This document shows, one piece after another, positions 30,762 to 46,350 of a stretch of DNA of 64,000 nucleotides; within the stretch, counting starts at the first letter, position 1, and each line of letters starts with the position of its first letter. The translations under genes were made by a program, and so were the position numbers. The DNA is taken from NCBI GenBank assembly GCA_964396715.1, contig CAYNFQ010000001.1, positions 117,873 to 181,872 of the forward strand, given 5' to 3'. This stretch comes from an uncultured Gammaproteobacteria bacterium. Lineage in GTDB: Bacteria > Patescibacteriota > Microgenomatia > Daviesbacterales > UBA10151. The notes beneath the pieces were generated by a model. The model ran no database searches. It was given only the letters and a program-made list of their open reading frames with translations, and had not been told where the DNA came from.

Positions 30762-31491
30762 TCTTTTTCAATGTGGGCATCAGTAAAAAAGATTTTTTTA
30801 CCATCTTTACAAACTATATACGCATTAGGATAGGGATTAGCAAGGCTTCTTATAAAATTATAAAGCTCATCAGATGTTTTTGTTTGAAAATCCTTAACAG
30901 TTAATTCACTCTGTTCAGGTTTTCTTCTTTTGAATGTAGTAACTATTGAAGGATCTTGCGGTACAGGTTGAAGAGTTCCATTGCTAATCCCTCTCAGAAT
31001 TCTAAGGGTTGTTGAAGTTCCTTCATTAATTATTCGTTTGAATATTTGATCTAGAGATCCCTTAAGAGAAAACGGAGATTGGCCATAGATTGGTCCGGAA
31101 TCCAGTCCAGCATCTGCTTTAAAAATGGTCACAGCAGACGTTTTTTCCCCTGCTATAATCTGATGTTGTAAGGGAGATCCACCTCGATATTTAGGCAGGG
31201 GAGAGATATGCAGTGTTAAAGTCAGATATTTTTCAAAAATTTCTTTTGGTATAAACCATAACCATCCAAAAATGAGTAAAATATCTGCCTTTTGTTTCTT
31301 TATTATTTCAACCAGGCCTTTTTTATCAAGAGGATCAAGTTTATAACAAGGAACAGATAAATTTTCAAACTTGCCTCTGGATTTGGTGTTGTAACTGTCG
31401 CACGAATTTTCCAATTAGTGTTTTTTTGTTGTAAGAGTTTTCTTAAAATCTGATAAGCCCATTTTCTATACCCGAAGTAGATAACGTTCAT
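30749..31491 (-). pseudogene. Frameshifted formyltransferase (PurN/Fmt-like); N-terminal 62-aa ORF (31303..31491) and 221-aa catalytic ORF (30749..31414) in different frames
   Basis: MNVIYFGYRKWAYQILRKLL... matches Fmt N-terminal Rossmann; second frame carries HISPLPKYRGGSPLQHQII; frames must join near 31381-31395. Confidence 0.55.
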
Positions 31492-32166
31492 AATGATGCT
31501 TTAAGGAGATTATAGCCTTCCGCATATTTCACGCCTATTTCAGTCCCCCTTATTCCTGCCATCCTTTCTAAATTTTGAGGGCTTCTGGGAAAAGGGTCTT
31601 CCCGTAGCTGAGTTTCGTGGCATTTTAAAAGTTCTATTTTTTCTTTAAAAATTTCAGAAATATCAAAATAAAAATTAGGTTTGAATCCATCCCGGTTAGT
31701 CCAGCTATATGGCTCTTCAGCTTCCAGTATGATTTTTGGCTGATGGCGCAAATTTTTAGGAATTGGTCTAAGAGCCGTGATAGATGCGGAAAAAAGCGCT
31801 CTATGGTCCTGATCAAAGCTGTCCCTAAATGGTATGCAAATTATATCAGGTTCAAACGCTTCAATTTTATCTTCTATATTTTCAATAAGTCTCTTTTGCG
31901 GCACACTGTCAAGTTTCATAAATTCCTCACCTTGAAACATTATTGAGTATTCAAAACCACCATACTTTGAAGCTTTTTTTGCCTCATCAAGACGACTTGC
32001 AGAATTTGTTTTTCCGGTAACCAACTGCCTTGATGAGCCAATAGATCCATACATCACGAATACTCTTGCACCAGTTTTTTTTTGCAAGCATGATCAACCC
32101 ACCACAGCAAATGGCTTCATCATCGGGATGAGGTGCAATAATCAAAATTTTTTTACCCTTAAGCAT
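31488..32166 (-). CDS. PIG-L/LmbE-family N-acetylglucosaminyl deacetylase, interrupted by a frameshift in an A9 homopolymer (plus-strand T9 at 32075-32083)
   Basis: Upstream frame encodes MLKGKKILIIAPHPDDEAICCGGLIMLAKK (PIG-L motif), downstream frame continues TGARVFVMYGS...; removing one A restores one ORF. Confidence 0.6.
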
Positions 32167-32226
32167 ATAAGTTCCAAAATTGCATTATGTAAGCAGAACA
32201 ACTGTATTATACAATATATAGATCTT

Positions 32227-34377
32227 ATGATGGATATTAAAAAAAATTTGAGTCCACTAATTATTTTAATAGTTTGTTTGATCCTTATTTTTGTATGGTT
32301 TAACAAGGGTTTGCTTTTTGCAGGTGGAGAGGGGGGAATCCCTTTTTATAACCTTTCAAAAACTGCAGAGCGCATTTCTTATCTTTGGATAGATGAAGAG
32401 GCTGGTTATCCGGGTGTAGGCAATCTAACAGAAGTCCCTTACTATGCATTGCTTAAGATCCCTTTGCAGTTTGGTGTGCCTTCAAATCTGGTTCAGGCTT
32501 TTCATTTTTTCTTGGTTATGTTTACCGGCGTGGTTTCTGTATATTTTCTGATAAAAATAACCATAGAGGAAGAACTTAAAAAAAATCTTAATTTTTGGGG
32601 CGCAAAATATATATCTTTGATTGGCGCTATCTTCTATTTATTAAATCCTTTTTCCATGTCGCAGGTTTTTGGCAGGAGTTTAAATATTCAATATCTTTCT
32701 TTTGTATTGCTGCCTTTATTTCTCCTGCTGTATATCAGGGGACTTAAAACAAGAAATCTAATATATGGCTTTTTAAGCTTGATACCTTCTTTTATCTTCT
32801 CAGGAGCGTATGGCAGTTTTGGATATATACCAGCACTTTGGTTTCTGGTATTTCTTTATACTGTATTTTACCTTTGGAAAAATAGAAGTAAAAGAGAAAT
32901 TATTTTTGGTATTTTTTTCTTATCTTTTGTTTTTCTCAGCTGGATCATGGTAAATCTTTTTTGGATTATTCCGGTTTTTAAATTAGGGGGACAACAACTG
33001 GCAGCTTCCCTTAATGCGACAGAGGAAAATCTTGGGTCTTTAAGAGGGGTGAGTAAGCATTTTTCTCTGCCTATTCTTATCAGGCTTCTTCATACAGGAT
33101 ATTTCTATGAGGATTTATACGGGATTGTTTATTCAAGTTTATTCTTTGTGATTATAAGTTGGATAATTCCTGTAGTGTCATTTTTTTCATTAACCCTTTT
33201 TAAGAAAGTAACCAGTTTTAAATTCTACCTGACTTTATTTGTAATTTCCCTTTTTATATCTTTAGGTTCTAATTTCCCAACAGGCTGGTTATTTGAATTC
33301 ATATTTGAAGCTGTACCTGCATTTCAAATGTACAGGAATCCTTATGAAAAATTTGGGCTGATTTTTCTTTTAGCCTATACCCCATTTTTTGCATTGGGGA
33401 CTCTGGTTTTGTCAGAAAAATTAGCTGCCTTTTTTAAACATCAACGTTTAAAGTATTTTTGGGTGGTGCTCATTCTTTTTCTGGTGAGTGGCATTTTTGT
33501 TTGGCCAATGTGGAAGGGAATTTTTGCAGGAGGTTACAGGATCAATACCTGGATAAACGTACCTGATTATTATAAAAATGCTAACGATTGGTTAAATCAG
33601 CAGGATGGAGATTTTAGATTGTTGCATCTTCCTTTAATTCCAGGAGATGGCATAAGGTATAAGTGGGATCATCCATATCAAGGCATTGAACCGTCTGAAT
33701 TTTTATTTGATAGAGCATCAATAGCTCAAAATATTCCTTTTAACAAACAATATTACAATGTTTTACTTCAGCGCATTGGGATTTTCCAGCCAAATATTTT
33801 TGGTTCTGATCCTGATTTGACAAATTCGGAATTTAAATCCGAAAAATTAGGGGAAGAGTTAGCGAAATTAAATATTCGATATATAGTTTTACATAATGAT
33901 ATTGATGTTAGTTTCGGTGGTTTCAAAACACCACAAGAAACTGCAGTCTATTTGGCCAAAGATAAAAAAATAATCAAAGTTAAAAGTTTCGGTCAGCTGG
34001 ATATATATGAGGTGGAAATTCCCCAAAATATTCAAATTATTTATTCTCCATCAACTACTTTAATCTATGAAAAAATTAACCCCGCTTTTTATAAAGTAAA
34101 AGTTACTGATGAAGTTAAACCTTTTAATTTGAATTTTCTTATGTCTTACAATTCAAATTGGCACGCTGTTATTGATGGTGAAGTAATACAGGATCATGTA
34201 AAATTATTTTCGTATGGAAATTCCTGGGAAGTTAACAAAACCGGCAGTTTTGAAATAGATTTAGTTTATAAACCGCAGGAACTGGTTAAACAGGGACAAA
34301 TAATTTCAACGTTTTCGTTTATAGTAATATCTCTGCTGATGGTCTGTTACCAAATTATATGGAAAAAAAGAATTTAA
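32227..34377 (+). CDS. Large polytopic membrane protein, family B (N-terminal multi-TM GT-C-like domain + C-terminal extracytoplasmic beta-rich domain)
   Basis: Shares WFxxGLxFxGGxxGxxFxN, RNPYEKFG, LLHLPLIPGDGIRYKWDHPYQGIEPSEF, IRYIVLHND motifs with the giants at 38636, 42468 and 46347. Confidence 0.65.
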   Translation: MMDIKKNLSPLIILIVCLILIFVWFNKGLLFAGGEGGIPFYNLSKTAERISYLWIDEEAGYPGVGNLTEVPYYALLKIPLQFGVPSNLVQAFHFFLVMFTGVVSVYFLIKITIEEELKKNLNFWGAKYISLIGAIFYLLNPFSMSQVFGRSLNIQYLSFVLLPLFLLLYIRGLKTRNLIYGFLSLIPSFIFSGAYGSFGYIPALWFLVFLYTVFYLWKNRSKREIIFGIFFLSFVFLSWIMVNLFWIIPVFKLGGQQLAASLNATEENLGSLRGVSKHFSLPILIRLLHTGYFYEDLYGIVYSSLFFVIISWIIPVVSFFSLTLFKKVTSFKFYLTLFVISLFISLGSNFPTGWLFEFIFEAVPAFQMYRNPYEKFGLIFLLAYTPFFALGTLVLSEKLAAFFKHQRLKYFWVVLILFLVSGIFVWPMWKGIFAGGYRINTWINVPDYYKNANDWLNQQDGDFRLLHLPLIPGDGIRYKWDHPYQGIEPSEFLFDRASIAQNIPFNKQYYNVLLQRIGIFQPNIFGSDPDLTNSEFKSEKLGEELAKLNIRYIVLHNDIDVSFGGFKTPQETAVYLAKDKKIIKVKSFGQLDIYEVEIPQNIQIIYSPSTTLIYEKINPAFYKVKVTDEVKPFNLNFLMSYNSNWHAVIDGEVIQDHVKLFSYGNSWEVNKTGSFEIDLVYKPQELVKQGQIISTFSFIVISLLMVCYQIIWKKRI

Positions 34378-35528
34378 AAATTTATATTTTTGCCCTAGCT
34401 GCAACAGGTTCGGGAATTTCTGGTTCTGACAGGATTTTTATTGAATTTACTAGAAAGTGGAGTAAAGAAGTTCCAGTGATAGTCTATCTATGGAGGGAGG
34501 GTTATGAGATGTGCCAAAGGCAAAATCTGGGAATATCAAATATTGAATATCGAATATCGAATATGAAATCATGGAGACCTTTTAGATTTCTAATAAATTA
34601 CATAGTTAGAATTATAGAGGGGATAAAACTAGGGACTATCTTAAAATTAAAAAATACTCCCCAAATCATTATTTATTCAGCTTCGGAATTTTGGATGGAT
34701 TCATTGCTGGCATTTTTATTAAAATTGCGCTTTCCCAAGGTTAAATGGGCTGCAGCATGGTATCAAACTGCACCTAGTCCGCTAAAAGGATTTTCCGGGT
34801 CTTTAATTTATTGGTTAGTTCAACTTCCAATAAAACCTCTGATTGATAGATTTGCTAACTTTGTTTTAGTAAATAATGATATGGAGAAGAAGGTTTTCAA
34901 GAGACTGAACAGAAAAAATAAAGCAATAGTTGTTTTGGGAGCAATAGATCTAGAGGGAATAAAAAAGTGGCAAAAGATTATCGGTAAAAAGAAGAAAATT
35001 TATGACGGAGTATTTCAAGGCAGGTTTCATCCGCAAAAAGGAGTTTTGGAGCTTATTGGTATATGGAAGAAGGTGGTTGATAAGAAACCGGATGCAAAAT
35101 TGGTAATGATAGGGGATGGGCCACTGATGGAAAATGTCAAATTACAAATTACAAATTACAAATTAAACAAAAACATCATTCTCAAAGGGTATATGTTTGA
35201 TGGGGAAGAGAAATATAAGATATTTGCCCAAAGCAAAATTGTGGTGCATCCTGCCATCTTTGATTCCGGCGGTATGGCATCGGCCGAGGCAATGGCTTTT
35301 GGATTGCCTTGCGTGGGTTTTAATTTAAAATCATACATTTACTATTACCCTTCAGGAATGGAAAAGGTTGATGAAGGAAATACCGAAGCTTTTGCCAAAA
35401 AAATACTTGAGCTTCTAAGTAATAAAACTTTATATGAAAAAGTATCCAAAGAAACATTGTATCTAATTAATTATAAATGGTCATGGGAATATAGGGCTCG
35501 TCAAATACTACAAGCAGTGTTAGAATAA
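34359..35528 (+). CDS. GT4 (GT-B) glycosyltransferase
   Basis: C-terminal GGMASAEAMAFGLPCVGF GT4 signature. Confidence 0.75.
   Translation: MEKKNLKIYIFALAATGSGISGSDRIFIEFTRKWSKEVPVIVYLWREGYEMCQRQNLGISNIEYRISNMKSWRPFRFLINYIVRIIEGIKLGTILKLKNTPQIIIYSASEFWMDSLLAFLLKLRFPKVKWAAAWYQTAPSPLKGFSGSLIYWLVQLPIKPLIDRFANFVLVNNDMEKKVFKRLNRKNKAIVVLGAIDLEGIKKWQKIIGKKKKIYDGVFQGRFHPQKGVLELIGIWKKVVDKKPDAKLVMIGDGPLMENVKLQITNYKLNKNIILKGYMFDGEEKYKIFAQSKIVVHPAIFDSGGMASAEAMAFGLPCVGFNLKSYIYYYPSGMEKVDEGNTEAFAKKILELLSNKTLYEKVSKETLYLINYKWSWEYRARQILQAVLE
34531..34572. repeat. Imperfect heptanucleotide tandem repeat (GAATATC)x6 within GT4 CDS (encodes GISNIEYRISNMKS)
   Basis: gaatatc aaatatt gaatatc gaatatc gaatatg aaatcat. 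Confidence 0.85.
35138..35165. repeat. Perfect heptanucleotide tandem repeat (CAAATTA)x4 within the same GT4 CDS (encodes KLQITNYKL)
   Basis: caaattacaaattacaaattacaaatta. Confidence 0.9.
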
Positions 35529-35535
35529 TTTCTTA

Positions 35536-36447
35536 ATGAAAAATTATCCCGGCGTTTCGGCAGTAATCCCGAGTTTTAATGATAAGAAAAAAGTTTTCCG
35601 GCTTTTGGATTCTTTAAAAAAATCAAAATATAAAAAATTGGAAATTATTGTTGTTATAAACGGGTTGATAGATACCCTTTTGGAGGGAAAGATTAAATAC
35701 AAATGGGTCCGCTGGATTGATGCGGGAAGGGAAAATATTGGCCAGACCGGATGCTACAATTTAGGTTTTGCGCATGCTAATAGAAAAAATCACATACTTT
35801 ATGTTGATTCCGATGTGGTTGTAGATAAGGAGATGGTTTCTAAATTGGTAGAAAGAGCCCAGTCAGATAAAAAAATTGGTATAGTTACCCCCATGATTTT
35901 ATATTTATCCGATAAAGATTGGGTTAATCAGGCAGGGGCAAGTGTGAATTTGATAACAGGAAAAGTAACAGTGGGCTGGGGTCCAAAAAAGGATTTTTTA
36001 ATAGCAAAAGAAGTGCAAAATTCTGGTACCCTGATGCTTTTTAAAAGACAGGTGGTTGATAAAATCGGAGGAGTTGATGATTGGTTCCTTTGTTATTTTG
36101 ACCCGGACTATTGTCTGAGAGCCAAAAAGGCAGGGTTTATAACCTGGTATGAGCCGAAAGCAATCTGTTACCATGATCAGTCTAAAAACCCAAATGTCTG
36201 GAGACCAAGAGTATTAACAAGGGCATATCTTTTGGGAAGAAACAGGGTTTTATTTATGAGAAGGCATGGAAATATAGTTACTTTCTCCTTTTTTTTGCCC
36301 TTAATTTTAGGTTTTTATCTTTTTGAATGCATTAAATTTGGACAAATTATTAAATTCTTTAAACTTTTGTGGGGGAGTATTGTAGGGTATTTTTATCCAT
36401 TAAGATCAGGTAATTTTATCCCGCTGCCAAAAGTAAACCGCACATGA
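35536..36447 (+). CDS. GT2 glycosyltransferase
   Basis: VSAVIPSFNDKKKV...EIIVVING, DSD motif. Confidence 0.7.
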   Translation: MKNYPGVSAVIPSFNDKKKVFRLLDSLKKSKYKKLEIIVVINGLIDTLLEGKIKYKWVRWIDAGRENIGQTGCYNLGFAHANRKNHILYVDSDVVVDKEMVSKLVERAQSDKKIGIVTPMILYLSDKDWVNQAGASVNLITGKVTVGWGPKKDFLIAKEVQNSGTLMLFKRQVVDKIGGVDDWFLCYFDPDYCLRAKKAGFITWYEPKAICYHDQSKNPNVWRPRVLTRAYLLGRNRVLFMRRHGNIVTFSFFLPLILGFYLFECIKFGQIIKFFKLLWGSIVGYFYPLRSGNFIPLPKVNRT

Positions 36448-38000
36448 AAAACAAATTAGCTTCGGTTGTAATAGTCACACATAATAGGAAGAAAGACTTG
36501 CTGGAATGTATAGATTCTTATTTTAAGTCAAGTTATCACCCGATTGAAGTAATTGTTGTAGATAATGCCTCAAATCCTGCCGTAAAAACATATCTTCCAA
36601 AAAAATATCCTAAGGTAAGAGTAATAACCAATAATAGAAACCTGGGGGCAGCGGAAGGAAGAAATATAGGTTTGGATACCTCAGTGGGGGAGTATATCCT
36701 GTTTTCGGATGATGATGCTTTTTGCGATAAAGATATGGTTAAGTATTTGGTTGAGGCATTCAAAAAAAAGCGTAAGGCAGGGATAATCCAGCCTTTGGTT
36801 TATGACAAACAAAAGAAAAATTATTTACAGGGGGCAGGTCATGATATTGATCTAACAACTGGAAGAATTAAGGCCTGGGGAGTCAGAGAAGAAGATAAGG
36901 GCCAATATGAAGGTTTAAGAAAAGTGCCAATGGTAGGATGTGTCTGGATGGTTAGAAAAGAAGTGTTTGAACAGGTGGGTAAATTTGATGCGGAATACTT
37001 TATTCCCTATGAAGACAGCGATTTTTGTTTGAGAGCATCAAATGCCGGTTTTGAAATTTATTGTTACTCAATGGCTAAATCTTGGCATTTGGGTCTTAAA
37101 ACAACTCATGTACATCCCCTGGTAGAGTGGTTAGGAATAACAACTCCGGAAAGATCGTATAGAGTTGCCAGAAACAAAATAATTTTTATGGCAAAAAACT
37201 CAAAATTTCCCAACAATTTGTTATTTTTCGGGCTATTTATGCCTGCATATTTGATTTTGCACTCATTAGTAATAATGTTGAGCGGTAGGTGGGATTTGTT
37301 AACAAGATACTGGCAGGGTGTTATCTCCGGGATATGGTATGGAATAAGGAGATTATTTAATAAAGCGACCATCATTATACTTTCCTTCACTGATCCGCTC
37401 CCATGGGTTTTGGATAAAAAGACAACAAGCATTTTAGACGTAGGGTGTGGAGAGGGTTTACCTATGAAGTTAATTAAAATAAGACTTAAGATAGAAAATT
37501 CAACCGGAGTAGATTTATTCAAGCCCTATATAGAAAAGGGAAGACAGTTTCAAATACATGATAATTACAAAATTCAGGATATAAGAAAGATAAATTTTAA
37601 AAATAGGTCTTATGATACGGTTATAGCGTCTCATGTTTTGGAACATCTTCCCAAAGATGATGCATTGAACCTTTTGCAAAAAATAGAGAAAATTGCCTCA
37701 AGACAAATAATTATAGCTTGCCCGATTGGACAGATGTATCACCCTGAAACAGACGGAAATAAACTGCAATTACACCTTTCGGCTTTTGAACCGGAAGAAT
37801 TTGAAAAAAGGGGTTATAAAATTATTAGGTATGGGTTCAGATGGTTGTTGGGAGAAGGAGGGATAATGGAATCATTTTCTAATATTTTCATCACGGAGAT
37901 TTGTTTTACTATTCACTTGCTATTTACGCCTATTTTTTATATATTTCCCAATATTGGAAGCTACACATTTGTGGCCTACAAAAAATGTAATGAAGCATAA
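36444..38000 (+). CDS. Fusion protein: N-terminal GT2 glycosyltransferase + hydrophobic linker + C-terminal class I SAM methyltransferase
   Basis: ASVVIVTHNRKKDLL...VIVVDNAS, DDD; then ILDVGCGEGLP...SHVLEHLPK MTase motifs; 518 aa. Confidence 0.7.
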   Translation: MKNKLASVVIVTHNRKKDLLECIDSYFKSSYHPIEVIVVDNASNPAVKTYLPKKYPKVRVITNNRNLGAAEGRNIGLDTSVGEYILFSDDDAFCDKDMVKYLVEAFKKKRKAGIIQPLVYDKQKKNYLQGAGHDIDLTTGRIKAWGVREEDKGQYEGLRKVPMVGCVWMVRKEVFEQVGKFDAEYFIPYEDSDFCLRASNAGFEIYCYSMAKSWHLGLKTTHVHPLVEWLGITTPERSYRVARNKIIFMAKNSKFPNNLLFFGLFMPAYLILHSLVIMLSGRWDLLTRYWQGVISGIWYGIRRLFNKATIIILSFTDPLPWVLDKKTTSILDVGCGEGLPMKLIKIRLKIENSTGVDLFKPYIEKGRQFQIHDNYKIQDIRKINFKNRSYDTVIASHVLEHLPKDDALNLLQKIEKIASRQIIIACPIGQMYHPETDGNKLQLHLSAFEPEEFEKRGYKIIRYGFRWLLGEGGIMESFSNIFITEICFTIHLLFTPIFYIFPNIGSYTFVAYKKCNEA

Positions 38001-38682
38001 TCACCGGCATGAATTTGAAAAAGATTCACAGAGCAAGTTTAAATTATTTTTAATGGCTATATCCGATCCATTGTCTTGGGTTGTTGATAAATCGGTAAGG
38101 TCAATATTGGATTTGGGGTGCGGTCAGGGCAAGCCAATGGCTATGATCAAACTTTGGCACAAAATAGATACTGCGGTGGGAGTTGAGCTATATAAGCCGT
38201 ATATTAAACTTGCAAGAAAGCAGAAGTTACACGATAAATATATTATTGGAGATGTAAGAGAGGTTAATTTTAAACCAAAATCTTACGATTTAGTTTTAGC
38301 CTCCCATGTTCTAGAGCATCTTCCTAAAAAGGATGCATGGAAACTTTTGAGCAAGATGGAAAAAATTGCCAAGATGCAAATTATTGTGGCAACGCCGATC
38401 GGAGCAATTTATCAACCTGCTTTTGATGATAATAAACTCCAGCAACACAAATCACATTTTCTGCCGGAAGAATTTGAAAAAAGAGGTTACAAGGTGATCA
38501 AATACGGTTTAAGATTTCTTTTGGATGAACATTCCGGGGGATTAGTTTACAAATTTAGCAATCCTACTGTTAAAAAAATTATCTATATTGTTAATTTTTT
38601 AATGACTCCTCTTTACTATCTATTCCCTCAAATTTGTGATTATTCGTTTGTGGCCTACAGGAGTATTAATAGTGAAAATTAA
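37990..38682 (+). CDS. Class I SAM methyltransferase, tandem paralog of the C-terminal domain of 36444..38000
   Basis: ILDLGCGQGKP...ASHVLEHLPKKDAWKLL...FLPEEFEKRGYKVIKYGLRFLL collinear with fused domain; start at Met13 of ORF. Confidence 0.7.
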   Translation: MKHNHRHEFEKDSQSKFKLFLMAISDPLSWVVDKSVRSILDLGCGQGKPMAMIKLWHKIDTAVGVELYKPYIKLARKQKLHDKYIIGDVREVNFKPKSYDLVLASHVLEHLPKKDAWKLLSKMEKIAKMQIIVATPIGAIYQPAFDDNKLQQHKSHFLPEEFEKRGYKVIKYGLRFLLDEHSGGLVYKFSNPTVKKIIYIVNFLMTPLYYLFPQICDYSFVAYRSINSEN

Positions 38683-41600
38683 AGATTACCTCTCAGTTGC
38701 CTTTTTATTTATTTTGTCAACTATACTTATTTTGATTTGGTTTAAGCAAGGACTGGCATTTGGCGGAGGAGACGTAGGTTTGCCCACTTTTAACCCCCAA
38801 AGGATTTTTCAATTTATCAGTCATATCTGGTGGGAAGCATCAGCCCCGGGTTTTCCAAGACCCCAGGGAATAACGGGTACCCCCTTTTATTTTTTGTTGT
38901 CCTTATTACAAAAAATAATTCCCTCATATGTATTAATGCAGGCTTTAATCTTCTGGTTGGTACTTTTTTTTATGGGGCTGGGTATGTACCTGGTTTCAAA
39001 AAGCGTTTTCGGAAAAGAAAAAGTGCTAATACCTCTTGTCTCCAGCATACTGTATCTCGTTAATCCTTATATGCAAATTTCAGTTTGGCATAGGTTTGTG
39101 CACACCACTTTTTTTCTGGCATCGACACTGCCTTTTTTGTTTATTTTTTGGCGCAGGTGGATTACATCAGGAAAACGATTAGATCTTCTTATTTTTTCTT
39201 TAATTAATGTTTTAGGTGCAATAATTTTCAGCACTTTGGGGTTTGTGATCAGTTTGTGGGTTTTTTTATTTTTTACCTCTTTTTTTATTATTTTTATACC
39301 GCGAAAAAGTTTATTCGAGGCAAAAACAATTATAGTAAGATCTACTGCGGGATTTATTGTTTGGGTATTTATATCTTTGTGGTGGATTTTGCCCCTTTTT
39401 GCTACTTCGCAGGCGATTTTTTCCAGACAGCACTCTTCAGCTGAGAGTGTAACAAACTTAATTGTTTTAAGCAACCAAACGGCAATTCCCAATACCTTGC
39501 AGGGAATTAACCCTTTTTATTTGTTTGAAGAAAAAGAATGGGGGGAAATTTACAATCAGTGGTATTTTCTACTGATGCCATTCATCCTAGTTACCCTGGC
39601 AGTTTTGGGGTTTGTAAGGGGTTTGGGTGATCGCAAATTTATTTTTTGGAGCCTGCTTTTTTTAGTAAGCATAATTTTTGCCAAAGGGGCGGCAGCCCCT
39701 TTTGGAGGCGGTTTTGTATATTTGTTTAGTAAATTTTTTGTATTGGGAGTTTTGAGAAATCCGTTTGAGAAAATAGGTATTTTTATACCCTTTACTTACG
39801 CCATCCTTATCCCGATAGGCTTGATCACTTTTTTTAAATTTGCCAAAAAAGCGAAACTTCAATATATAGTTATGCCATTTGTATCTATATTGCTGATTTT
39901 GATTTTAGTCATTTGGCATTGGCCATTTTGGCAGGGAAAATTATTCGGAAGCCAATATAGTCCGCCCGAAGTTCAGGTACCGGATTATTATTTAAAGGCA
40001 GATAATTGGATAAAGGAACAAGGAAAGGATGGAAGAATTCTTCACCTGCCGCTGGTTGTCGGTGAAGCAACTGCGTATAAGTGGGAGTATGGCTACAGAG
40101 GTGTTGAGCCGAGCCAGGTTTTTTTCACTTCAAATCCTTCTCTGTCCCAGGGGTTTAATTTAAGCTTTTTGGATGATGCGCTAGCAACGCTGCAGATATT
40201 TTTAAACAGGAGTGATTTTGTTGATGAAGATCAAATCAGGCAACTTCTTAAAATTTTTGGGATCCGATACATTGTTTTACATCTTGATATGGATCCAACA
40301 TATATGGACGTATACAACCCAATAAGGCTTAAAAAACAATTGGGTCAGCTTAAGTTTCTAAAAAAACAGAATGAATTCGGCAAACTTATTATATATGAGG
40401 TTCTGGAAGAAAACCCTATCATTTTTACAGCTTCATCTTTTGATTATTTACTAATGGGAGAGAAAAATCAATTTTGGCCCTGGTTAATTAAGAATAAAAA
40501 CAATCAACTTATCTCAGGGATAGACTTGGATGAAGATTCGATTCATACGGATCATTCGATAGTAGTTGCTTCTTTCTCATTTGATACACCGCCCTCAAAT
40601 CCCGTGGAAGAAAAAATAGAATTGGATCAGCTTCCATCTGTCCGGATACTACCAGGATCCCCCTTTTATTTTTTAATAAGGCTGAAAGAGTACTTTGAAA
40701 CATATTCTGTTTTTGGGAAAGAACGTATTTCAAAACAAATCCTCTTTGCCAGTAAAAGGCTTGTGGAAGCGGTTAAGATAAAGGAACTTGATAAAAACAA
40801 CCAAATCTCGGCAATTTTAACAGATTATTCAGACCTTTTGGACAAGCTGAAACTATCATTAAAAGGGGCATTTCCCTATGAAAAATCTGCAGTTGATGCA
40901 ATATTTGCAAGACATAGTGTTATTTTAGATTCACTTACAGATTCCGCTGTTACAGGTAGTGAGAAGGAAATTGTAGTAAAAGCTAAAGAAAAATTGGCCG
41001 AAGATTTGAGTTTATGGGGTTTGCGGCCTCTTATCGCTTTTAATAAAGAAACATCATTGTATAACAGAAGAGTATTTACATTTCAGGTTTCGAAAACAGG
41101 GGATTATGAGGTTTTATTCGGCCTGGATAAAGGAAATAGCTTTGATGAAATTTTTGATATAGCTTTGGATGGAAAACCGATCTTAAAAAATAATCCGACT
41201 GATCTGGAACAACCGGTCAAAATAATAAGTTTCGGCAAAATATATTTAGAGCCAGGTTATCATGAATTAAGTTACCGTTCCAAAAAAATTCCCGTAAATA
41301 TTTTATCGCTTGATAAGTGGTTTAAGTCGGAAAAAGGCGAGTTTAGCGGAAACTCAGATGAGATGAGTATAAGCAGTGAGATAAATGAAACAGCGAGCAT
41401 GCAATTGCCTATGAAAGATTTTATTGCCGGGAATACTTATATACTTCGATTTGAATACTGGGTTCAAAAAGGCAAGGGGCCGATAGTGCAAGTACTTTCG
41501 GATAACGACCCAATAATAAAAGGTAAAAGAGAGATGAAAGCAGATAAGCAGTTTGCCGCCGAAACCTATAACCGTTATTGGCAAAATGCGTTTGTGAGTT

Positions 41601-42139
41601 TTGAACCCCGTTTGTCAGCCGATGATACTTTAATTGAGATATCGGTTGAACCCTGGAATGATTGTGAGATAATCAGCCCGATTCGTTCGACTTGCAAGAT
41701 TAAGAAATTTAGAAAACAATTTGACAGAAAAAGCACATTGATTGTCAAAAATGTTGTCCTTGAAAGAATTTCCAGGTCTGAGATTTTTCTTAAAACCTCA
41801 AATAGCAAAATTAAAGAGTCTACAAATTCAGGCAGGGTTGAATATGCTAGGGAAAACCCTTCTTTTGTCAGGGGGAAATTAAAAATCGATAAACCCCAAG
41901 TTTTGGTATTCGCTGAAACTTTCGATAAGGGTTGGAAGTTAGATTTATTTAAAGAGGGTAGAAAAATTAATCCTCAGGAGCATTTATTGGTAAACGGTTA
42001 TGCTAATGGTTGGTTGGTAAAGGAAGCTGGAGAATATGAATTCTCTATCAATTTTGACGCCCAGAAACTAGTCAACATAGGCGGTATAATATCTATGATA
42101 ACTTTGGGGGGATTACTATTATGGCTTATCAGAAAATAA
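38636..42139 (+). CDS. Giant (1167 aa) polytopic membrane protein, family B; N-terminal ~570-aa multi-TM GT-C-like module and ~600-aa C-terminal extracytoplasmic domain
   Basis: WFKQGLAFGGGDVGLPTFNPQRI...WWEASAPGFPRPQG, VLRNPFEKIG, ILHLPLVVGEATAYKWEYGYRGVEPS, IRYIVLHLDMD, C-terminal NGYANGW; alternative GTG start at 38672. Confidence 0.7.
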   Translation: MIIRLWPTGVLIVKIKDYLSVAFLFILSTILILIWFKQGLAFGGGDVGLPTFNPQRIFQFISHIWWEASAPGFPRPQGITGTPFYFLLSLLQKIIPSYVLMQALIFWLVLFFMGLGMYLVSKSVFGKEKVLIPLVSSILYLVNPYMQISVWHRFVHTTFFLASTLPFLFIFWRRWITSGKRLDLLIFSLINVLGAIIFSTLGFVISLWVFLFFTSFFIIFIPRKSLFEAKTIIVRSTAGFIVWVFISLWWILPLFATSQAIFSRQHSSAESVTNLIVLSNQTAIPNTLQGINPFYLFEEKEWGEIYNQWYFLLMPFILVTLAVLGFVRGLGDRKFIFWSLLFLVSIIFAKGAAAPFGGGFVYLFSKFFVLGVLRNPFEKIGIFIPFTYAILIPIGLITFFKFAKKAKLQYIVMPFVSILLILILVIWHWPFWQGKLFGSQYSPPEVQVPDYYLKADNWIKEQGKDGRILHLPLVVGEATAYKWEYGYRGVEPSQVFFTSNPSLSQGFNLSFLDDALATLQIFLNRSDFVDEDQIRQLLKIFGIRYIVLHLDMDPTYMDVYNPIRLKKQLGQLKFLKKQNEFGKLIIYEVLEENPIIFTASSFDYLLMGEKNQFWPWLIKNKNNQLISGIDLDEDSIHTDHSIVVASFSFDTPPSNPVEEKIELDQLPSVRILPGSPFYFLIRLKEYFETYSVFGKERISKQILFASKRLVEAVKIKELDKNNQISAILTDYSDLLDKLKLSLKGAFPYEKSAVDAIFARHSVILDSLTDSAVTGSEKEIVVKAKEKLAEDLSLWGLRPLIAFNKETSLYNRRVFTFQVSKTGDYEVLFGLDKGNSFDEIFDIALDGKPILKNNPTDLEQPVKIISFGKIYLEPGYHELSYRSKKIPVNILSLDKWFKSEKGEFSGNSDEMSISSEINETASMQLPMKDFIAGNTYILRFEYWVQKGKGPIVQVLSDNDPIIKGKREMKADKQFAAETYNRYWQNAFVSFEPRLSADDTLIEISVEPWNDCEIISPIRSTCKIKKFRKQFDRKSTLIVKNVVLERISRSEIFLKTSNSKIKESTNSGRVEYARENPSFVRGKLKIDKPQVLVFAETFDKGWKLDLFKEGRKINPQEHLLVNGYANGWLVKEAGEYEFSINFDAQKLVNIGGIISMITLGGLLLWLIRK

Positions 42140-42483
42140 AATCAGTATCCATAAGGTTGTTTATTTTGTTTCTTTCAATAGTATTGATTTATTATACTAA
42201 TGGTAATGCCGGCAGTGAATCTTTTGGAAATATTCAATCTGCAATTTTGTCAGCAGGTTTGATTGTTGCAGTGTATTTACCTGCTAAGAGGCCTTTCATA
42301 CTTCTCTTTGCCATTTTAATGTGGTCTGTTATGATAGGATTTTACCTGGTAGAAGCTCGGGATTATGCTTACTTTTTCGGCAGTATAGGTTTTGGGATAA
42401 TATTTCTGGTAATCTTAACTTATGTTCCGGAACTTTTAAAAACAGGTTATATAGCCGATTTTCAAAAATGGTTCAAAGATTAA
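42121..42483 (+). CDS. Small (120 aa) 3-4 TM membrane protein following giant B1
   Basis: Hydrophobic; C-terminal GSIGFGIIFLVILTYVPELLKTGY resembles GSLGIGILAILIFSYFGDFVKRGF of 45935..46264. Confidence 0.5.
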   Translation: MAYQKIKSVSIRLFILFLSIVLIYYTNGNAGSESFGNIQSAILSAGLIVAVYLPAKRPFILLFAILMWSVMIGFYLVEARDYAYFFGSIGFGIIFLVILTYVPELLKTGYIADFQKWFKD

Positions 42484-45400
42484 CAAAATTTTTTTTCAAT
42501 AATAATTTGAACAGTCATTTTTTTGCGTTATTTACGTTTTTTTTACTCAGTGTATTTCTTGTTTTCAGCTGGTTTAGACAAGGCTTAATTTACGGGGGAG
42601 GAGATGTTGGTTTGCAGACCTTTAATCCCCAAAGGATACTGGAAATCTCCCAATTTATCTGGTGGGAAGCAACCGCCCCCGGTATTCCGGTTCCCCAGGG
42701 TTTAACCGCCATACCATTCAATTTTGCCTTTTCTATTTTACAATCCATAGGTTTTAGCCCGTTTTTACTTCAGGCAAGCTTGTTTTTTCTTATACTTTTC
42801 TTCTGTGGTCTGGGAATGTATTTTCTTATTTTATTTTTGTTTGGGGACAGGTATAAAATTTATGCAATTTTGGCGGGATTATTCTATATGGTTAATCCAT
42901 ACATGATGATTTCGGTTTGGCACAGGTTTGTCCACTCAACGTTCTTCTTTATTTCGGCTCTGCCTTTTTTAACTATTTTCTGGCTGAAGTGGATCAGGAA
43001 CAAAAATCCGATATCACTCCTGATTTTTTTATTAATTAACCTTATTTCCTTGTATGCTTTCGGGACGATTGCCTATATTCTTACCCTCTGGCTTTTCCTT
43101 TTTCTAATCACTATTCCTGAAATAATTTTTTCCTGGCAAGGCCTAAAAAATTTTAAGAAAATATTGACGGTTTTTTTAGTAGGTTTCTTTTTTTGGGTTT
43201 TGACAAATGCCTGGTGGTTGGTGCCTATATTTAAAATCTCTCCGACTGCTTTGTCGGAGCAACACAGTAATGAAGAAACTTTATCTACACTAATAAATAT
43301 AAGCAGACAAACTATACTTCCCTACTCATTACAAATGATCAATCCTTTCTATTTATTTTACCAGCTGGATTTGGGGAAAAGTTACCAGAATGTTTTTATC
43401 CGTGTCCTCCCTTGGATTTTTGTTTCAGTTATTTTTATCGGATTAATAAGGGCTTTGTTCAATAAAGACATGGCAAGATGGACTCTGGTTTATCTTGCCG
43501 TAATATTTTTTGCCAAAGGCGCGGCTTCCCCCTGGGGTTTTATATATATCTTTGCCTTAAAATATTTTTTCCCCCTCGGGGTGCTGCGGAACCCGTTTGA
43601 AAAAATTGGTATTCTGTTACCTCTGGTAAGCACAATTTTATTTATCATTGGATTAAAATTTGTTTATGAAAGCCTAAGACATAAATTCAGCGTGAGGGTT
43701 GCAGCAGTTAGCCTGGTAGTTGTTTTTGGATCTGTTTTTATTTTTTGTTTGCCCTTATTCGGAGGGAGAATATTTGGTAGGTTTGATAAACCGGAATTTG
43801 TAAGTGTACCGCAATCTTATAAGGATGCGGATAATTGGATTAAATCCGACTATGAAAAGAATAAAAATCAAAATCCAGGCAAGATTTTACATTTGCCCCT
43901 GACAAGAGGTGAAAGCATTAATTATAATTGGGAATATGGCTACAGCGGACTGGAATCCAGTGCATTATTCTTTACAGCCGCCCCTTCTATTTCTCACGGG
44001 TTCAATCTCAGGAGAACTGATGATTCTTTGACAACGCTTTATTATTCGCTTCGAAATAGTCATTTATTTGATCAGAATATTACAAAAAGACTCTTGAGTG
44101 ATTTTAATATTGCCTACATTGTGTTGCATAAAGATGTGAAATGGCAGGGTTCTGATTTGTACAATCCCGCAGAGACAGAGGAGGTTTTAAATAAATTAAA
44201 TTTTATTAAACTTGAAAAAACCTTTGGAGATTTAATGATTTATAAAGTATTGGAAGAGAATTTTAATCCGAAGATTTTCATAAGCGGAAACTATCACATA
44301 ATTTATCCTCCCAATACTTTTAGCGTACAGCCCTGGATAGAAGCGTCAGGTAGTTCCATCATAACTTCCGTAGATATTGAAGATAATCGAAAATTGGAGG
44401 AATTTTCCCGAAGCACTACAATTTTTTCTAAAAGCTCCTTTGTTTATACAGAGGCATCATCTTCTTCAATTGTGTCAACTATAAATGCATTGGTTTCCAA
44501 TCCGGCAAGTAAAGACTTATGGTTAGATTCATTAATTAAAATCAGGCCGATTTTGAAACAAAATGGTGAGATCCAGGCAGAAGAATTTAGCAGTCAAATA
44601 ATTTATGCCAGTGAAAAAATTTTAAAAATAATGAGAGGATTTGCTTTAGAGAAAAATGATCCTTCCCCAAAAGAGGTAGACGATTATGGTCAAATAGTTA
44701 AAAACCTCTTTTCTGCCAATACCTACAGTCCCAGACTACAACTTTACGCTAACAGTACACAGCTCAGTCAGATATTCCAGATTCATTTATACATTCTCAA
44801 AATAATTTCTGAAATAACCCAATCAGAAACCAGAAACAATTTGATAAGGGTTTTAGATCTGTTAAAAGAAAATTTATCCAGAAATAATCTTATTCCCGAT
44901 TCTTCGGAGATGCAGGCTATCTCATCAAGAAGAGATGTTTATAAATTTGAAGTGCCTTATGATTCGGATTACAAAATTATCCTTGCATTTTCCAAGGACA
45001 AATCTATTTATCAAAATAAATTAGATAAGCTATTTTTTATCCTTGACGGTAAACCACTTAATTTTAAGGGAGAGGTAGAAAATGACCTAATTTCATTTGG
45101 TCCTGTATCCATTGCAAAGGGGTCACACATGATTAGTTTTCCGGTCCTTTTATCGGATAATTTATCAGTTATCGCTAATTTTATTAAGGGGGGGGAGGTT
45201 AATTTATCAGATGATGGTAATTTTTATCTTAAGGGGGCTGACACTAATTTAAGCTTTCTAGAAAGTAGAATAAACAATACTTTTGGACAAGACATATTTA
45301 AAGTAAACTTCGATGTAAAAGTAGAAAAAGGAAACGGTTTTAATTTTCAACTTTTGCAGGATACGGACACCATTGATCAAACCGGCCAGCCGAATTTGGC

Positions 45401-45938
45401 AATAAATCAGAAGATTTTCCAACCGGAGGGAACAGATTGGCTAGAGTATGATTTTTTTCTGCCGCCTCTCAGGTTTAATACGGATACTGTTGCCATAAGA
45501 TTTGTAGCTAATTCTCCCATAAAAGTAAGAAATTTAAAAATTGAGAGAGTATTTAACGGAGACGTTTTTTTAAGGGATATTAAATCTTTTAATAAGATAA
45601 ATGATAAAGGAGCGGGTAAGGTAGATTTCTATCAAAAAAACCCTGCCCTTTACAGAGGTAAGATTTATTTGGATAAACCATCCTTTATAATATTTTCAGA
45701 ATCTTTTCATCCCGGTTGGAAATTAGTTTTATCTAAACAGGGCAAAGATTATATTCCTACCATTCATACAATGGCAAACCTTTATGCAAATGCCTGGTAT
45801 ATTGATAAAGACGGCGAATATGATTTTAAGCTGGAATTTGAACCTGAAAGAATAGTGAAAATTGGCTCTCTATTGGCATTAGCAGGTTATTTGAGTCTTA
45901 TAATCTATATTATCTTAAAAAATAGAAAAAATAGATGA
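42468..45938 (+). CDS. Giant (~1156 aa) polytopic membrane protein, family B paralog
   Basis: WFRQGLIYGGGDVGLQTFNPQRI...WWEATAPGIPVPQG, VLRNPFEKIG, ILHLPLTRGESINYNWEYGYSGLESS, IAYIVLHKDVKW, LYANAW; start at Met50 of ORF (overlaps 3' end of small protein gene). Confidence 0.7.
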   Translation: MVQRLTKFFFNNNLNSHFFALFTFFLLSVFLVFSWFRQGLIYGGGDVGLQTFNPQRILEISQFIWWEATAPGIPVPQGLTAIPFNFAFSILQSIGFSPFLLQASLFFLILFFCGLGMYFLILFLFGDRYKIYAILAGLFYMVNPYMMISVWHRFVHSTFFFISALPFLTIFWLKWIRNKNPISLLIFLLINLISLYAFGTIAYILTLWLFLFLITIPEIIFSWQGLKNFKKILTVFLVGFFFWVLTNAWWLVPIFKISPTALSEQHSNEETLSTLINISRQTILPYSLQMINPFYLFYQLDLGKSYQNVFIRVLPWIFVSVIFIGLIRALFNKDMARWTLVYLAVIFFAKGAASPWGFIYIFALKYFFPLGVLRNPFEKIGILLPLVSTILFIIGLKFVYESLRHKFSVRVAAVSLVVVFGSVFIFCLPLFGGRIFGRFDKPEFVSVPQSYKDADNWIKSDYEKNKNQNPGKILHLPLTRGESINYNWEYGYSGLESSALFFTAAPSISHGFNLRRTDDSLTTLYYSLRNSHLFDQNITKRLLSDFNIAYIVLHKDVKWQGSDLYNPAETEEVLNKLNFIKLEKTFGDLMIYKVLEENFNPKIFISGNYHIIYPPNTFSVQPWIEASGSSIITSVDIEDNRKLEEFSRSTTIFSKSSFVYTEASSSSIVSTINALVSNPASKDLWLDSLIKIRPILKQNGEIQAEEFSSQIIYASEKILKIMRGFALEKNDPSPKEVDDYGQIVKNLFSANTYSPRLQLYANSTQLSQIFQIHLYILKIISEITQSETRNNLIRVLDLLKENLSRNNLIPDSSEMQAISSRRDVYKFEVPYDSDYKIILAFSKDKSIYQNKLDKLFFILDGKPLNFKGEVENDLISFGPVSIAKGSHMISFPVLLSDNLSVIANFIKGGEVNLSDDGNFYLKGADTNLSFLESRINNTFGQDIFKVNFDVKVEKGNGFNFQLLQDTDTIDQTGQPNLAINQKIFQPEGTDWLEYDFFLPPLRFNTDTVAIRFVANSPIKVRNLKIERVFNGDVFLRDIKSFNKINDKGAGKVDFYQKNPALYRGKIYLDKPSFIIFSESFHPGWKLVLSKQGKDYIPTIHTMANLYANAWYIDKDGEYDFKLEFEPERIVKIGSLLALAGYLSLIIYIILKNRKNR

Positions 45939-46264: not shown

Positions 46265-46350
46265 AATACCTATTCTCACTTATTTTATTTTTTCTGATAG
46301 TAGCATCGGTATTTTTTTATATTTTGGGGGTTAGATTTAAGAAAAAATGA
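46261..46350 (+). CDS. Micro-ORF, 29-aa single-TM peptide MKYLFSLILFFLIVASVFFYILGVRFKKK
   Basis: ATG overlaps upstream TGA (46261-46264), its TGA overlaps ATG of giant B3 (46347-46350); below ORF-track length cutoff. Confidence 0.35.
   Translation: MKYLFSLILFFLIVASVFFYILGVRFKKK

Follow-up and report, generated by a model that had tools for sequence, protein, structure and literature searches.

Which reaction is carried out by a protein in which a GT2 glycosyltransferase and a methyltransferase (MT) are joined, and what is the role of the second MT encoded directly behind it? These questions are raised by two overlapping genes, here named ORF A and ORF B, within a 64-kb stretch of DNA that was analysed as a whole and is referred to as the window. 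ORF A is read as a bifunctional, membrane-associated GT/MT of surface-glycan assembly, with ORF B as a second MT, and a probability of roughly 0.6 is given to this reading. Both proteins have NCBI entries from the same Candidatus Daviesbacteria genome, namely MBI3103840.1 for ORF A, annotated as 'glycosyltransferase', and MBI3103839.1 for ORF B. The features of the locus are collected in Table 1.

Table 1. Features of the GT2-MT locus and of the surrounding glycan island (positions refer to the window).
Feature	Position	Strand	Size or residues	Basis
Flavoprotein, sole mutase candidate	4031-5359			matches PRK07233, amine-oxidase-type families
GT-C membrane glycosyltransferase (AftD-like N-terminal domain) and GT4	32128..35528	+	749 aa; 389 aa	Pfam
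Stand-alone GT2 glycosyltransferase	35536..36447	+	303 aa	PF13641/PF00535
ORF A, GT2-MT fusion gene	36444..38000	+	518 aa	Pfam, AlphaFold2 model
GT-A catalytic domain of ORF A	36444..37145	+	residues 1-234	
Helical region between both ORF A domains	37146..37409	+	residues 235-322	model, hydropathy
Class I SAM MT domain of ORF A, 'alpha' type	37410..37997	+	residues 323-518	
Gene junction A/B	37980..38000	+		sequence reading
ORF B, stand-alone class I SAM MT, 'beta' type	37990..38682	+	230 aa	Pfam
Two giant AftD-like GT-C paralogues	38636..45938	+	1167 aa; 1205 aa	PF11847 for the first
Membrane protein between the giant GT-C paralogues	42121-42483		120 aa	
Wzx homologue	49041-50303			PF01943
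Polyprenyl-phosphate sugar synthase-type GT2	51785-52525			

The preliminary description had proposed that ORF A fuses a GT2 domain to an MT through a hydrophobic linker, and profile searches and hydropathy bear this out; both ORFs lie at the coordinates given there. Residues 7-178 match PF00535 (Glycos_transf_2) with 104 bits (gathering score 23.3), while residues 331-417 match PF08241 (Methyltransf_11) with 44.8 bits (gathering score 21.2). The AlphaFold2 model of ORF A, with a mean pLDDT of 91.5 and a pTM of 0.83, forms a single compact unit. In this model, the joining region contains helices 235-252, a hydrophobic helix spanning residues 257-279, and a long amphipathic helix spanning residues 283-316; the Kyte-Doolittle score of residues 257-282 is 2.15.

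The GT2 domain adopts a GT-A fold and carries the metal- and nucleotide-sugar-binding DxD motif as D89-D90-D91 (36708-36716). Across 66 homologues, this triad, E190-D191 and H215 are invariant in the GT2 part, as are F261 and P267 in the helical region. The closest structure to the GT2 domain is GlfT2, which aligns over 290 residues with 18% sequence identity. As this alignment is longer than the 234-residue GT-A core, the helical region is probably partly aligned as well. E190-D191 may correspond to the 'DD' motif of GlfT2. The mycobacterial GlfT2, a tetramer which, like GlfT1, is involved in arabinogalactan synthesis, has no MT domain, unlike ORF A. Polyprenyl-phosphate sugar synthases of the DPMS/GtrB/ArnC type are not the closest class of the GT2 domain in structure and sequence.

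None of the NCBIfam equivalogs reaches its cut-off for either ORF. Among the best matches, the rhamnosyltransferase family TIGR01556 scores 87.8 bits against the fusion (cut-off 200.55) and the GlfT1 family NF050113 scores 42.8 bits against ORF A (cut-off 330), so that the fusion falls outside these families by score. The only paired matches are to MftF and MftM, a GT2 and a 2-O-methyltransferase of mycofactocin glycosylation, in which MftM methylates the glucan chain built by MftF (PMC9679996). Despite E-values of 7e-18 for MftF and 5e-9 for MftM, the scores remain far below those required for membership, with 64.7 of 280 bits for MftF and, for MftM, 34.0 (ORF A) and 35.8 (ORF B) of 200 bits. 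Furthermore, MftF and MftM are two distinct proteins whose genes lie at different loci, and their substrate is a small redox cofactor.

The MT domain of ORF A has the seven-stranded Rossmann-like fold of class I MTs. Motif I, of the (E/D)xGxGxG type, reads ILDVGCGEG (37431-37457), and acidic residues end strand beta2 (D357) and follow strand beta3 (D379). The domain further contains an LEH motif with E400-H401, as well as N439 and H444. ORF B matches PF08241 with 51.1 bits (gathering score 21.2), and its corresponding residues are LDLGCGQG, E66 and D88. The position of D357 is occupied by aspartate in at least 90% of sequences, which makes E66 a conservative replacement. Both MTs retain the full set of SAM-binding and family-invariant residues. 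GxGxG, D379 and the LEH motif do not vary across the 66 homologues, and the cofactor positions recur in all three MT lineages; the two copies in the window possess them, as well as the LEH motif. A loss of SAM-binding residues, which had been named as grounds for rejecting the preliminary description, is thus not observed on alignment.

ORF B is a paralogue of the MT domain of ORF A, as had been described. Residues 306-516 of ORF A and 15-227 of ORF B share 54% identity and 74% positives with an E-value of 9e-84, which is far beyond chance. The motifs ILDVGCGEGLPM / ILDLGCGQGKPM, ASHVLEHLPK and FEPEEFEKRGYK / FLPEEFEKRGYK, listed earlier as collinear, were located in both copies, together with the hydrophobic C-terminal segment.

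ORF B begins 11 nt before the end of ORF A (overlap 37990-38000) and is read in frame +1 relative to it. The junction includes a run of six adenines (37980-37985), the ATG of ORF B (37990-37992) and the TAA stop codon of ORF A (37998-38000). This arrangement raises the question of whether the gene boundaries are genuine. The loss of one A from the run would join ORFs A and B in frame, and direct reading of the sequence revealed no obvious Shine-Dalgarno sequence before the ATG at 37990. Moreover, P0002 and P0003, which are 66% identical overall to ORF A, encode GT2-MT-MT in a single ORF of 745 aa. The split could on these grounds be a frameshift in such a triple fusion, or one MT copy could be a redundant, inactive remnant. 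Against this, the 518-aa protein recurs identically on five contigs and the 230-aa protein on four, in NCBI and Logan assemblies. In three other lineages (L002, L009 and L021), the downstream MT is likewise separate and has an ATG of its own that lies at the stop codon of the preceding gene or overlaps this codon. Both copies also retain every invariant residue of the family, and each has conserved orthologues with 63-80% identity. In view of the identical proteins on several contigs and the independent MT starts in relatives, an artefact of frameshift or assembly is rejected, and this reading is given very little credence, as is decay of one copy. A programmed +1 frameshift at the adenine run, where a single slip would yield a triple fusion of the P0002 type, was also rejected, because no stall codon is present and the run is not conserved in L002, L009 and L021. 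The fusion itself is real, as its full-length architecture is found in more than 120 non-redundant protein clusters in Patescibacteria at 50-66% identity. The suspicion of two artificially joined genes, raised together with the original proposal, is thereby removed.

The origin of the second MT differs from what had been suggested, if the proposed duplication is taken as a local tandem event. MT relatives were collected by exhaustive search, and a distance-based bootstrap tree was calculated. The alpha clade received 99.5% support, and the grouping of ORF B with P0122 and P0006 received 96%, while monophyly of alpha and beta received 0%. As the two copies in the window are not sisters, a recent local tandem duplication is excluded; by sequence, they belong to different, older MT lineages. 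Consistently with its placement, ORF B shares 80% identity with the single fused MT of P0006, compared with 64% for the second MT in the triple fusion P0002 and only 52% for its neighbour in ORF A. The MT lineages are distinguished by 18 positions, and this pattern is compatible with a divergence in specificity, though no proof of it.

Relatives display a variety of module layouts. The GT2 and MT can be encoded by separate genes, by a GT2-MT fusion, by a fusion preceded by an MT (MT+GT2-MT), by a fusion followed by a separate MT, as in the window, or by a single GT2-MT-MT ORF. Even at the same chromosomal position, they may be unfused (L028-L031), fused, or doubly fused (L001 and L012). The occurrence of two proteins in separate, fused and doubly fused form is a classic indication of a joint function.

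The genomic surroundings of the module are those of a glycan island. The window encodes many sugar-nucleotide-modifying enzymes and at least five other methyltransferases, as well as a Wzy_C-like protein and the Wzx homologue. Among the scanned ORFs of at least 120 aa in the window, no ABC-transporter family was found. No match to the Pfam family of UDP-galactopyranose mutase (GLF), the enzyme that supplies UDP-Galf, was obtained among the scanned window proteins. The GT-C and GT4 genes upstream of the module are found in the same arrangement in L001, L005, L009 and L010. Downstream, the order of the giant GT-C genes, whose products share 34% identity over their full length, is the same in L001, L002, L003 and L008. 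An additional observation, absent from the preliminary description, concerns the GT2 encoded immediately upstream of ORF A. This protein and the GT2 half of ORF A are paralogous, with 30% identity over 303 aa and an E-value of 4e-33, and the similarity extends to the hydrophobic C-terminal helices. The paralogue occupies the same place ahead of the fusion in L001, L003, L005, L008, L009 and L010.

The invariant association with the giant GT-C genes allows for a different product. GT-C enzymes need polyprenyl-phosphate sugar donors, and both domains of the module carry hydrophobic helices. The GT2 domain might then make a polyprenyl-phosphate monosaccharide that is methylated by the MT and used as donor by the neighbouring extracytoplasmic AftD-like GT-C enzymes. 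This alternative is regarded as improbable.

The hydrophobic helices also bear on membrane topology. Helix 481-500 of ORF A (37884-37943) is an insertion between strands beta6 and beta7 of the MT, and in the model it is bracketed by strands 459-463 and 508-514 of the sheet. Since it sits between two strands of the MT sheet, it cannot span the membrane, and the MT therefore remains on the side that contains SAM. Helix 257-279 is sufficiently hydrophobic for a true transmembrane span, and the topology argument fails should it traverse the membrane with no helix leading back. The hydrophobic lid helix of the MT suggests a membrane-embedded substrate, which might also be something other than a glycan, such as a membrane lipid head group methylated in the manner of PmtA-type phospholipid N-methyltransferases. 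Sequence comparison also gave a weak hit to the phosphatidylethanolamine N-methyltransferase 8ys9 (E 9e-4), in line with such a target. However, the PmtA match is no better than those to many unrelated class I MTs, and the MT recurs in fusions with glycan-building enzymes and keeps strict synteny with them. A non-glycan target is accordingly considered very unlikely.

Bifunctional GT/MT enzymes have been known before, namely WsaE, ORF6 of Klebsiella O7, and a GT2 of Clostridioides difficile, and provide an experimental precedent for such proteins in glycan modification. WsaE of Geobacillus stearothermophilus NRS 2004/3a is a methyl-rhamnosyltransferase that acts in the cytoplasm on the lipid-linked S-layer glycan (PMC2943079). 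Judged by its described architecture, it resembles the module in combining SAM-dependent glycan methylation and GT2-type transfer in one polypeptide. The domain order differs, as WsaE has an N-terminal MT followed by two GT domains, while in ORF A the GT2 precedes the MT. WsaE is further described as a soluble protein of a Wzm/Wzt ABC-transporter pathway, in which the methyl group is a chain-terminating cap, whereas the module in the window carries hydrophobic helices, is accompanied by an extra stand-alone MT and lies in a context of the Wzx/Wzy type. In ORF6 of Klebsiella pneumoniae O7 and in WbdD/WbdA of E. coli O9a, MT and GT2 modules are split differently depending on the serotype (PMC11231755), a redistribution that parallels the fission and fusion of GT2 and MT in the relatives studied here. 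CgnL (7pd7) is among the structural neighbours of both the O7 MT domain and the MT domain of ORF A. ORF6 and WbdD are methyltransferase-kinase terminators with coiled-coil rulers that produce methyl-phosphate caps, in contrast to the module in the window, for which neither Pfam nor NCBIfam detects a kinase domain and the model contains no helix resembling a coiled-coil ruler. The type B flagellin GT2 of C. difficile (CDR20291_0242) was proposed to add rhamnose residues and to methylate them (PMC5207246). Its likeness to ORF A consists of shared Pfam families, PF00535 and PF08241 in one protein; it modifies a protein-linked O-glycan of flagellin, whereas the glycan of ORF A is predicted to be lipid-linked and its neighbours are GT-C enzymes.

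These precedents bring up a terminator function. GlfT2 is a processive polymerase (PMC12269835), and both WsaE and ORF6 are terminators that unite MT and GT. The GlfT2-like domain might accordingly produce a homopolymer or repeat polymer, and the fused MT might cap its non-reducing end with a methyl group and thereby set its length, as in WsaE and WbdD, with the second MT adding a second or variant cap. Known methyl-cap terminators, however, use Wzm/Wzt ABC-transporter pathways and usually a coiled-coil ruler, while the window offers Wzx and the Wzy_C-like protein instead, and the MT is N-terminal in WsaE and ORF6. A terminator is therefore considered unlikely, albeit the most probable of the alternatives.

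On the preferred reading, the bifunctional GT/MT of surface-glycan assembly would operate as follows. At the cytoplasmic face of the membrane, the GlfT2-like domain would add a sugar derived from a nucleotide sugar to a glycan linked to polyprenyl diphosphate. The fused MT would then O- or N-methylate this lipid-linked intermediate at the expense of SAM. ORF B, a member of the same small, membrane-facing family, would be translationally coupled through the overlap of the two genes and may methylate a second site, be it a different position or a different residue. Helix 257-279, and helix 481-500 or its equivalent in both MTs, would anchor the catalytic domains to the surface of the membrane, close to the putative lipid-linked substrate. 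The product would be flipped by the Wzx homologue, and the adjacent AftD-like GT-C enzymes would then elaborate it further on the outer side.

The cell-surface glycans of Patescibacteria (CPR) are not known to have been studied by experiment. A literature search on glycans or S-layers of Patescibacteria or Daviesbacteria gave nothing relevant, and no paper was found in it to support the earlier remark that methylated S-layer glycans are common in CPR organisms. The genome analysed here devotes at least 64 kb to the production of surface glycans, with the GT2-MT module placed in the conserved core region of the island, next to the giant AftD-like GT-C enzymes.

Because the module is conserved in relatives and resembles known bifunctional glycan enzymes, it represents an uncharacterised system and not a new type of system. 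Taken alone, the finding amounts to the correct domain annotation of a widespread, uncharacterised enzyme family and adds no new principle. The natural variants, which are unfused, fused or doubly fused and contain one to three MTs, provide a comparative series that could help to assign methylation steps as soon as the glycans of enrichment cultures become amenable to analysis. A broader and decidedly speculative reading, held to be unlikely, is that the MT is a mobile cassette of one to three copies and that a GlfT2-like polymerase with an MT in cis couples elongation to methyl-capping. If this were true, MT copies, whether fused or free, would be swapped between lineages and give rise to strain-specific methylation patterns of surface glycans, the module thereby serving as a serotype-like generator of diversity in ultra-small, probably host-attached bacteria. 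In the lineage of the window, capping would take place without an ABC transporter or a coiled-coil ruler, and such coupling would constitute a mechanism of length or pattern control undescribed in known pathways.

ORF A (WIN_A) encodes a glycosyltransferase family 2 (GT2) domain fused to a class I SAM methyltransferase (MT), and ORF B (WIN_B), a stand-alone MT, follows in frame +1 with an overlap of 11 nt. The ORF list and the Pfam matches to both domains bear out the fusion proposed in the preliminary description, and ORF B is indeed a paralogue of the fused MT domain, with 54% identity between residues 306-516 of ORF A and 15-227 of ORF B (BLASTP, E 9e-84). All motifs quoted in that description lie inside this alignment, its hydrophobic linker corresponds to the strongly hydrophobic residues 257-282 between the two domains of ORF A, and a hydrophobic segment is found at the end of both MT copies. 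The observation was accurate in each detail, apart from overlooking the upstream gene, whose product is paralogous to the GT2 half of ORF A (30% identity), hydrophobic helices included. The local layout is GT2, GT2-MT, MT.

Positions of the features in the window and in homologous loci of relatives (L handles)
Feature	Sequence	Position	Details
FAD/amine-oxidase-type flavoprotein	window	4031-5359 (-)	
Sugar-modifying genes	window	10455-12144, 28106-28552, 30749-32087	
Four-gene run	window	21103-24409	
GT-C protein	window	32128-34377	AftD-type N-terminal domain
GT4	window	34359-35528	
GT2 paralogue	window	35536..36447	
ORF A, GT2-MT fusion	window	36444..38000 (+)	518 aa, ATG start
Glycos_transf_2	ORF A	residues 7-178	104 bits (gathering score 23.3)
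Methyltransf_11	ORF A	residues 331-417	44.8 bits (gathering score 21.2)
ORF B, stand-alone MT	window	37990..38682 (+)	230 aa from ATG at 37990
Methyltransf_11	ORF B		51.1 bits
Giant AftD-like protein	window	38636-42139	1167 aa; AftD-type GT-C N-terminal domain, weak DUF5667 match
Membrane protein	window	42121-42483	120 aa; flanked by the two giants
Giant AftD-like protein	window	42321-45938	1205 aa; paralogue of the 1167-aa protein
Listed, like 32128-34377, alongside the giant GT-C trio	window	46347-49031	
Wzx-type flippase	window	49041-50303	
AglJ/ArnC/PpgS-type GT2	window	51785-52525	
Wzy_C-like protein	window	61844-63256	
P0002, GT2-MT-MT	L001	10001-12238	745 aa
P0003, GT2-MT-MT	L012 (CALRFD010000005.1)		745 aa
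Flavoprotein	L003	8683-9960	425 aa
Distant MT and GT2-MT	L009	7345-10185	
Distant MT and GT2-MT	L010	7349-9560	
GT2 with ~590-aa region	L026	5561-8239	
GT2 with ~590-aa region	L027	5909-8659	

Among 5.8 billion non-redundant proteins, 430 relatives of ORF A were detected. Among the best 120 of these 430, identity is 50-66% over about 99% of the query, length is 514-556 aa bar a few truncated proteins, and the named members belong to Candidatus Daviesbacteria or 'Patescibacteria group'. GT2 and methyltransferase Pfam domains are present in all 120, and this constant architecture upholds the earlier view that the fusion is authentic. Exact-sequence look-up at NCBI identifies ORF A as MBI3103840.1 ('glycosyltransferase', 518 aa) and ORF B as MBI3103839.1 ('class I SAM-dependent methyltransferase', 230 aa), both of a Candidatus Daviesbacteria bacterium; identical proteins occur on 5 (ORF A) and 4 (ORF B) contigs in NCBI and Logan assemblies.

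P0002 and P0003, the two nearest non-identical relatives for which long contigs exist, carry GT2, MT and MT in one reading frame and share 66% identity with ORF A. Removal of one A from the A6 run at 37980-37985 would convert the window genes into the same triple fusion. An error or very recent frameshift as the origin of the A/B split is made very unlikely by the loci L002, L009 and L021, in which the downstream MT is likewise separate, with its own ATG at or overlapping the upstream stop, and by the recurrence of the split on independent contigs. The natural state in the window is thus one of separate genes coupled in translation, and the triple fusion exists as a genuine variant in a neighbouring lineage.

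In A1, an alignment of 66 homologues numbered by ORF A, the invariant residues of the GT2 half are D89-D90-D91 (DxD), E190-D191-x-D193, and H215, those of the hydrophobic helix are F261 and P267, and those of the MT half are L331-D332, G336, G338, G355, D379, D391, V393, E400-H401, N439, and H444. ORF B retains all invariant MT positions, its sole change being the conservative D357 to E. Loss of SAM-binding residues, on which the preliminary description had let its idea stand or fall, was looked for, and these residues are intact in both copies. The AlphaFold2 model of ORF A built from A1 (mean pLDDT 91.5, pTM 0.83) predicts a GT-A domain, helices 235-252 and 257-279, a long helix 283-316, and a seven-stranded MT fold. 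In the modelled MT sheet, strand 459-463 and the last strand, 508-514, bracket the C-terminal hydrophobic helix 481-500. As the model anchors both ends of this helix in one soluble domain, it cannot span the membrane, and hydropathy together with the model favours a role as hydrophobic lid or membrane-interface helix. An exhaustive search of 1.84 billion representatives for the MT family yielded relatives at 30-45% identity that are mostly stand-alone proteins of 200-240 aa, the match running through the lid helix, and some proteins with two tandem MT domains. The lid is thus a trait of the MT family.

The alignment with GlfT2, the mycobacterial galactofuranosyltransferase, comprises 290 residues, which exceeds the GT-A core (residues 1-234), so that part of the helical region following this core probably aligns as well. 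None of the curated NCBIfam models reaches its cut-off with ORF A or ORF B, the scores being 87.8 bits for a rhamnosyltransferase (cut-off 200), 64.7 for MftF (280), 42.8 for GlfT1 (330), and 35.8 for MftM (200). Membership in a characterised family is therefore not claimed.

The history of the two MT copies was addressed with a neighbour-joining tree of MT domains (200 bootstraps). The fused MT of the window and five other fused MTs form the alpha clade with 99.5% support, and all four alpha members with examined loci have a further MT of the same family immediately downstream or fused on. ORF B, representing the beta lineage, groups with P0122 and the sole MT of the GT2-MT protein P0006 (96% support), within a wider group (52.5%) of other stand-alone MTs, the second MTs of triple fusions, and the fused MTs of P0026, P0031, P0042, and P0049. 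In no bootstrap replicate do alpha and beta form one monophyletic group (0% support). ORF B is 80% identical to the MT of P0006 versus 52% to its own neighbour ORF A; the GT2 domain of ORF A shares 76% identity with P0007 and 72% with P0006, unlike its MT, which shares 47% with both. These groupings and identities contradict a recent local duplication, so the suggested origin of the second MT by duplication is not supported in the sense of a local tandem event. Either the duplication is old and differential loss and fusion came after it, or related loci have exchanged MT cassettes. Of the two copies, the stand-alone gene rather than the fused domain is closest to the fused MTs of related genomes. 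Alpha and beta are separated by 18 positions, each at least 80% conserved within its own group, among them E337/Q and L339/K beside motif I and H491/N and F498/Y within the lid helix; this pattern would be compatible with different substrate or positional specificity.

The neighbourhoods of eight relatives and an HMM scan of 88 loci, 77 of them from a scan of one genome per species, show a core order of GT-C, GT4, GT2, GT2-MT, giant GT-C, small membrane protein, and giant GT-C, which is kept in Daviesbacteria, Amesbacteria, Woesebacteria, and further Patescibacteria. The methyltransferase complement at the GT2-MT position differs among loci. A single GT2-MT is found in L003/L015, L008, L016, L020, and L022, and GT2-MT is followed by a close paralogue in the window, L002, L009, L021, and L023. 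Both MTs are fused on in L001 and L012, GT2 and MT are separate genes in L028 and L029, and GT2, MT, and MT are all separate in L030 and L031. In L026 and L027, one of which is from Woesebacteria, the GT2 orthologue carries a C-terminal region of ~590 aa instead of the MT, which is the next, separate gene. As the same partners are repeatedly fused and split, there is strong comparative evidence that GT2 and MT function together in a single step or complex.

A more distant MT of the same family lies directly upstream of GT2-MT in L010, L013, L014, L017, L018, and L019, as well as in L009, where three MT modules surround one GT2; the window is without this copy. In L001 and L003, an unannotated protein of 611-632 aa adjoins GT2-MT and possibly corresponds to the ~590-aa region. 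The Patescibacteria-type loci L014, L017, L022, L023, L028, L029, and L030 stem from MAG records titled 'uncultured Gammaproteobacteria bacterium' (binchicken and SRP co-assemblies), a label that looks like a placeholder or mis-assignment.

The entire 64-kb window is a glycan-biosynthesis island. The two giant membrane proteins share 34% identity over their full length, and the trio they form with the 120-aa protein is kept downstream of GT2-MT in Daviesbacteria and related genomes; these AftD-like proteins are uncharacterised and probably more unusual than the rest of the locus. Further genes comprise a PMT_2 GT-C, several GT4 and GT2 enzymes, DegT aminotransferases, acetyltransferases, epimerases, dehydratases, and at least five methyltransferases of other families, ORF A and ORF B being the only window genes of their MT family. 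The glycan may contain branched, N-formylated or N-deacetylated amino sugars, judging from genes for a sugar C-methyltransferase (Methyltransf_13/14), FdtA-like cupins, a second formyltransferase, and a PIG-L-type deacetylase. A pathway dedicated to an unusual nucleotide-activated sugar is suggested by the four-gene run, which encodes a SIS-domain sugar-phosphate isomerase, a ribulose-phosphate 3-epimerase, a 530-aa protein whose N-terminal part weakly matches a nucleotidyltransferase, and a small HAD phosphatase. The flavoprotein matches NCBIfam PRK07233 ('hypothetical protein', 399 bits) and not UDP-galactopyranose mutase; in L003, another Daviesbacteria locus, a flavoprotein of like size and Pfam profile lies immediately upstream of the GT2-MT gene. 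No tRNA genes were found in window positions 1-64000, all but one of the 32 profiled 2-kb windows (31) have a positive GC skew, and beyond 12 kb the genes are mostly on the + strand.

Domains, motifs, fold class, conservation, synteny, and module shuffling are directly supported. For the substrate, the sugar, the methylation chemistry, the order of steps, and the division of labour between the two MTs, we infer a scheme to which we assign a probability of roughly 60%. On the cytoplasmic side, the GlfT2-like GT2 domain would elongate a glycan linked to polyprenyl diphosphate, the in-cis MT of ORF A would methylate the product, and the coupled ORF B would add another methyl group, with hydrophobic helices holding the active sites close against the membrane. 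After flipping, GT-C enzymes would elaborate the glycan. The main rival, in which a polymerase is paired with a methyl-capping terminator in the manner of WsaE or WbdD, is unlikely, being weakened by the lack of an ABC transporter among the ORFs scanned in the 64-kb window and of a coiled-coil ruler in the model. A more novel reading, likewise unlikely, is that the MT cassettes serve as a generator of surface-glycan diversity or couple elongation and capping independently of a transporter.

Bifunctional or modular GT/MT enzymes are already established. WsaE combines an N-terminal 2-O-methyltransferase with two rhamnosyltransferase domains (PMC2943079), and Klebsiella O7 ORF6 a methyltransferase-kinase, a coiled coil, and two GT2 modules, the distribution of modules varying by serotype, as stressed in the same work (PMC11231755). 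A C. difficile flagellin GT2 contains PF00535 and PF08241 (PMC5207246), and in MftF/MftM a GT2 and an O-methyltransferase work on the same glucan (PMC9679996). Several ORF A homologues carry the JGI label 'GT2 family glycosyltransferase/SAM-dependent methyltransferase'. Characteristic of ORF A are the GlfT2-like GT2, the GT2-then-MT order, and the hydrophobic lid helices, and of the module as a whole the variable number of MT cassettes and the Patescibacteria-specific partnership with giant AftD-like GT-C enzymes. ORF A and ORF B are thus an uncharacterised addition to the established GT/MT enzymes.
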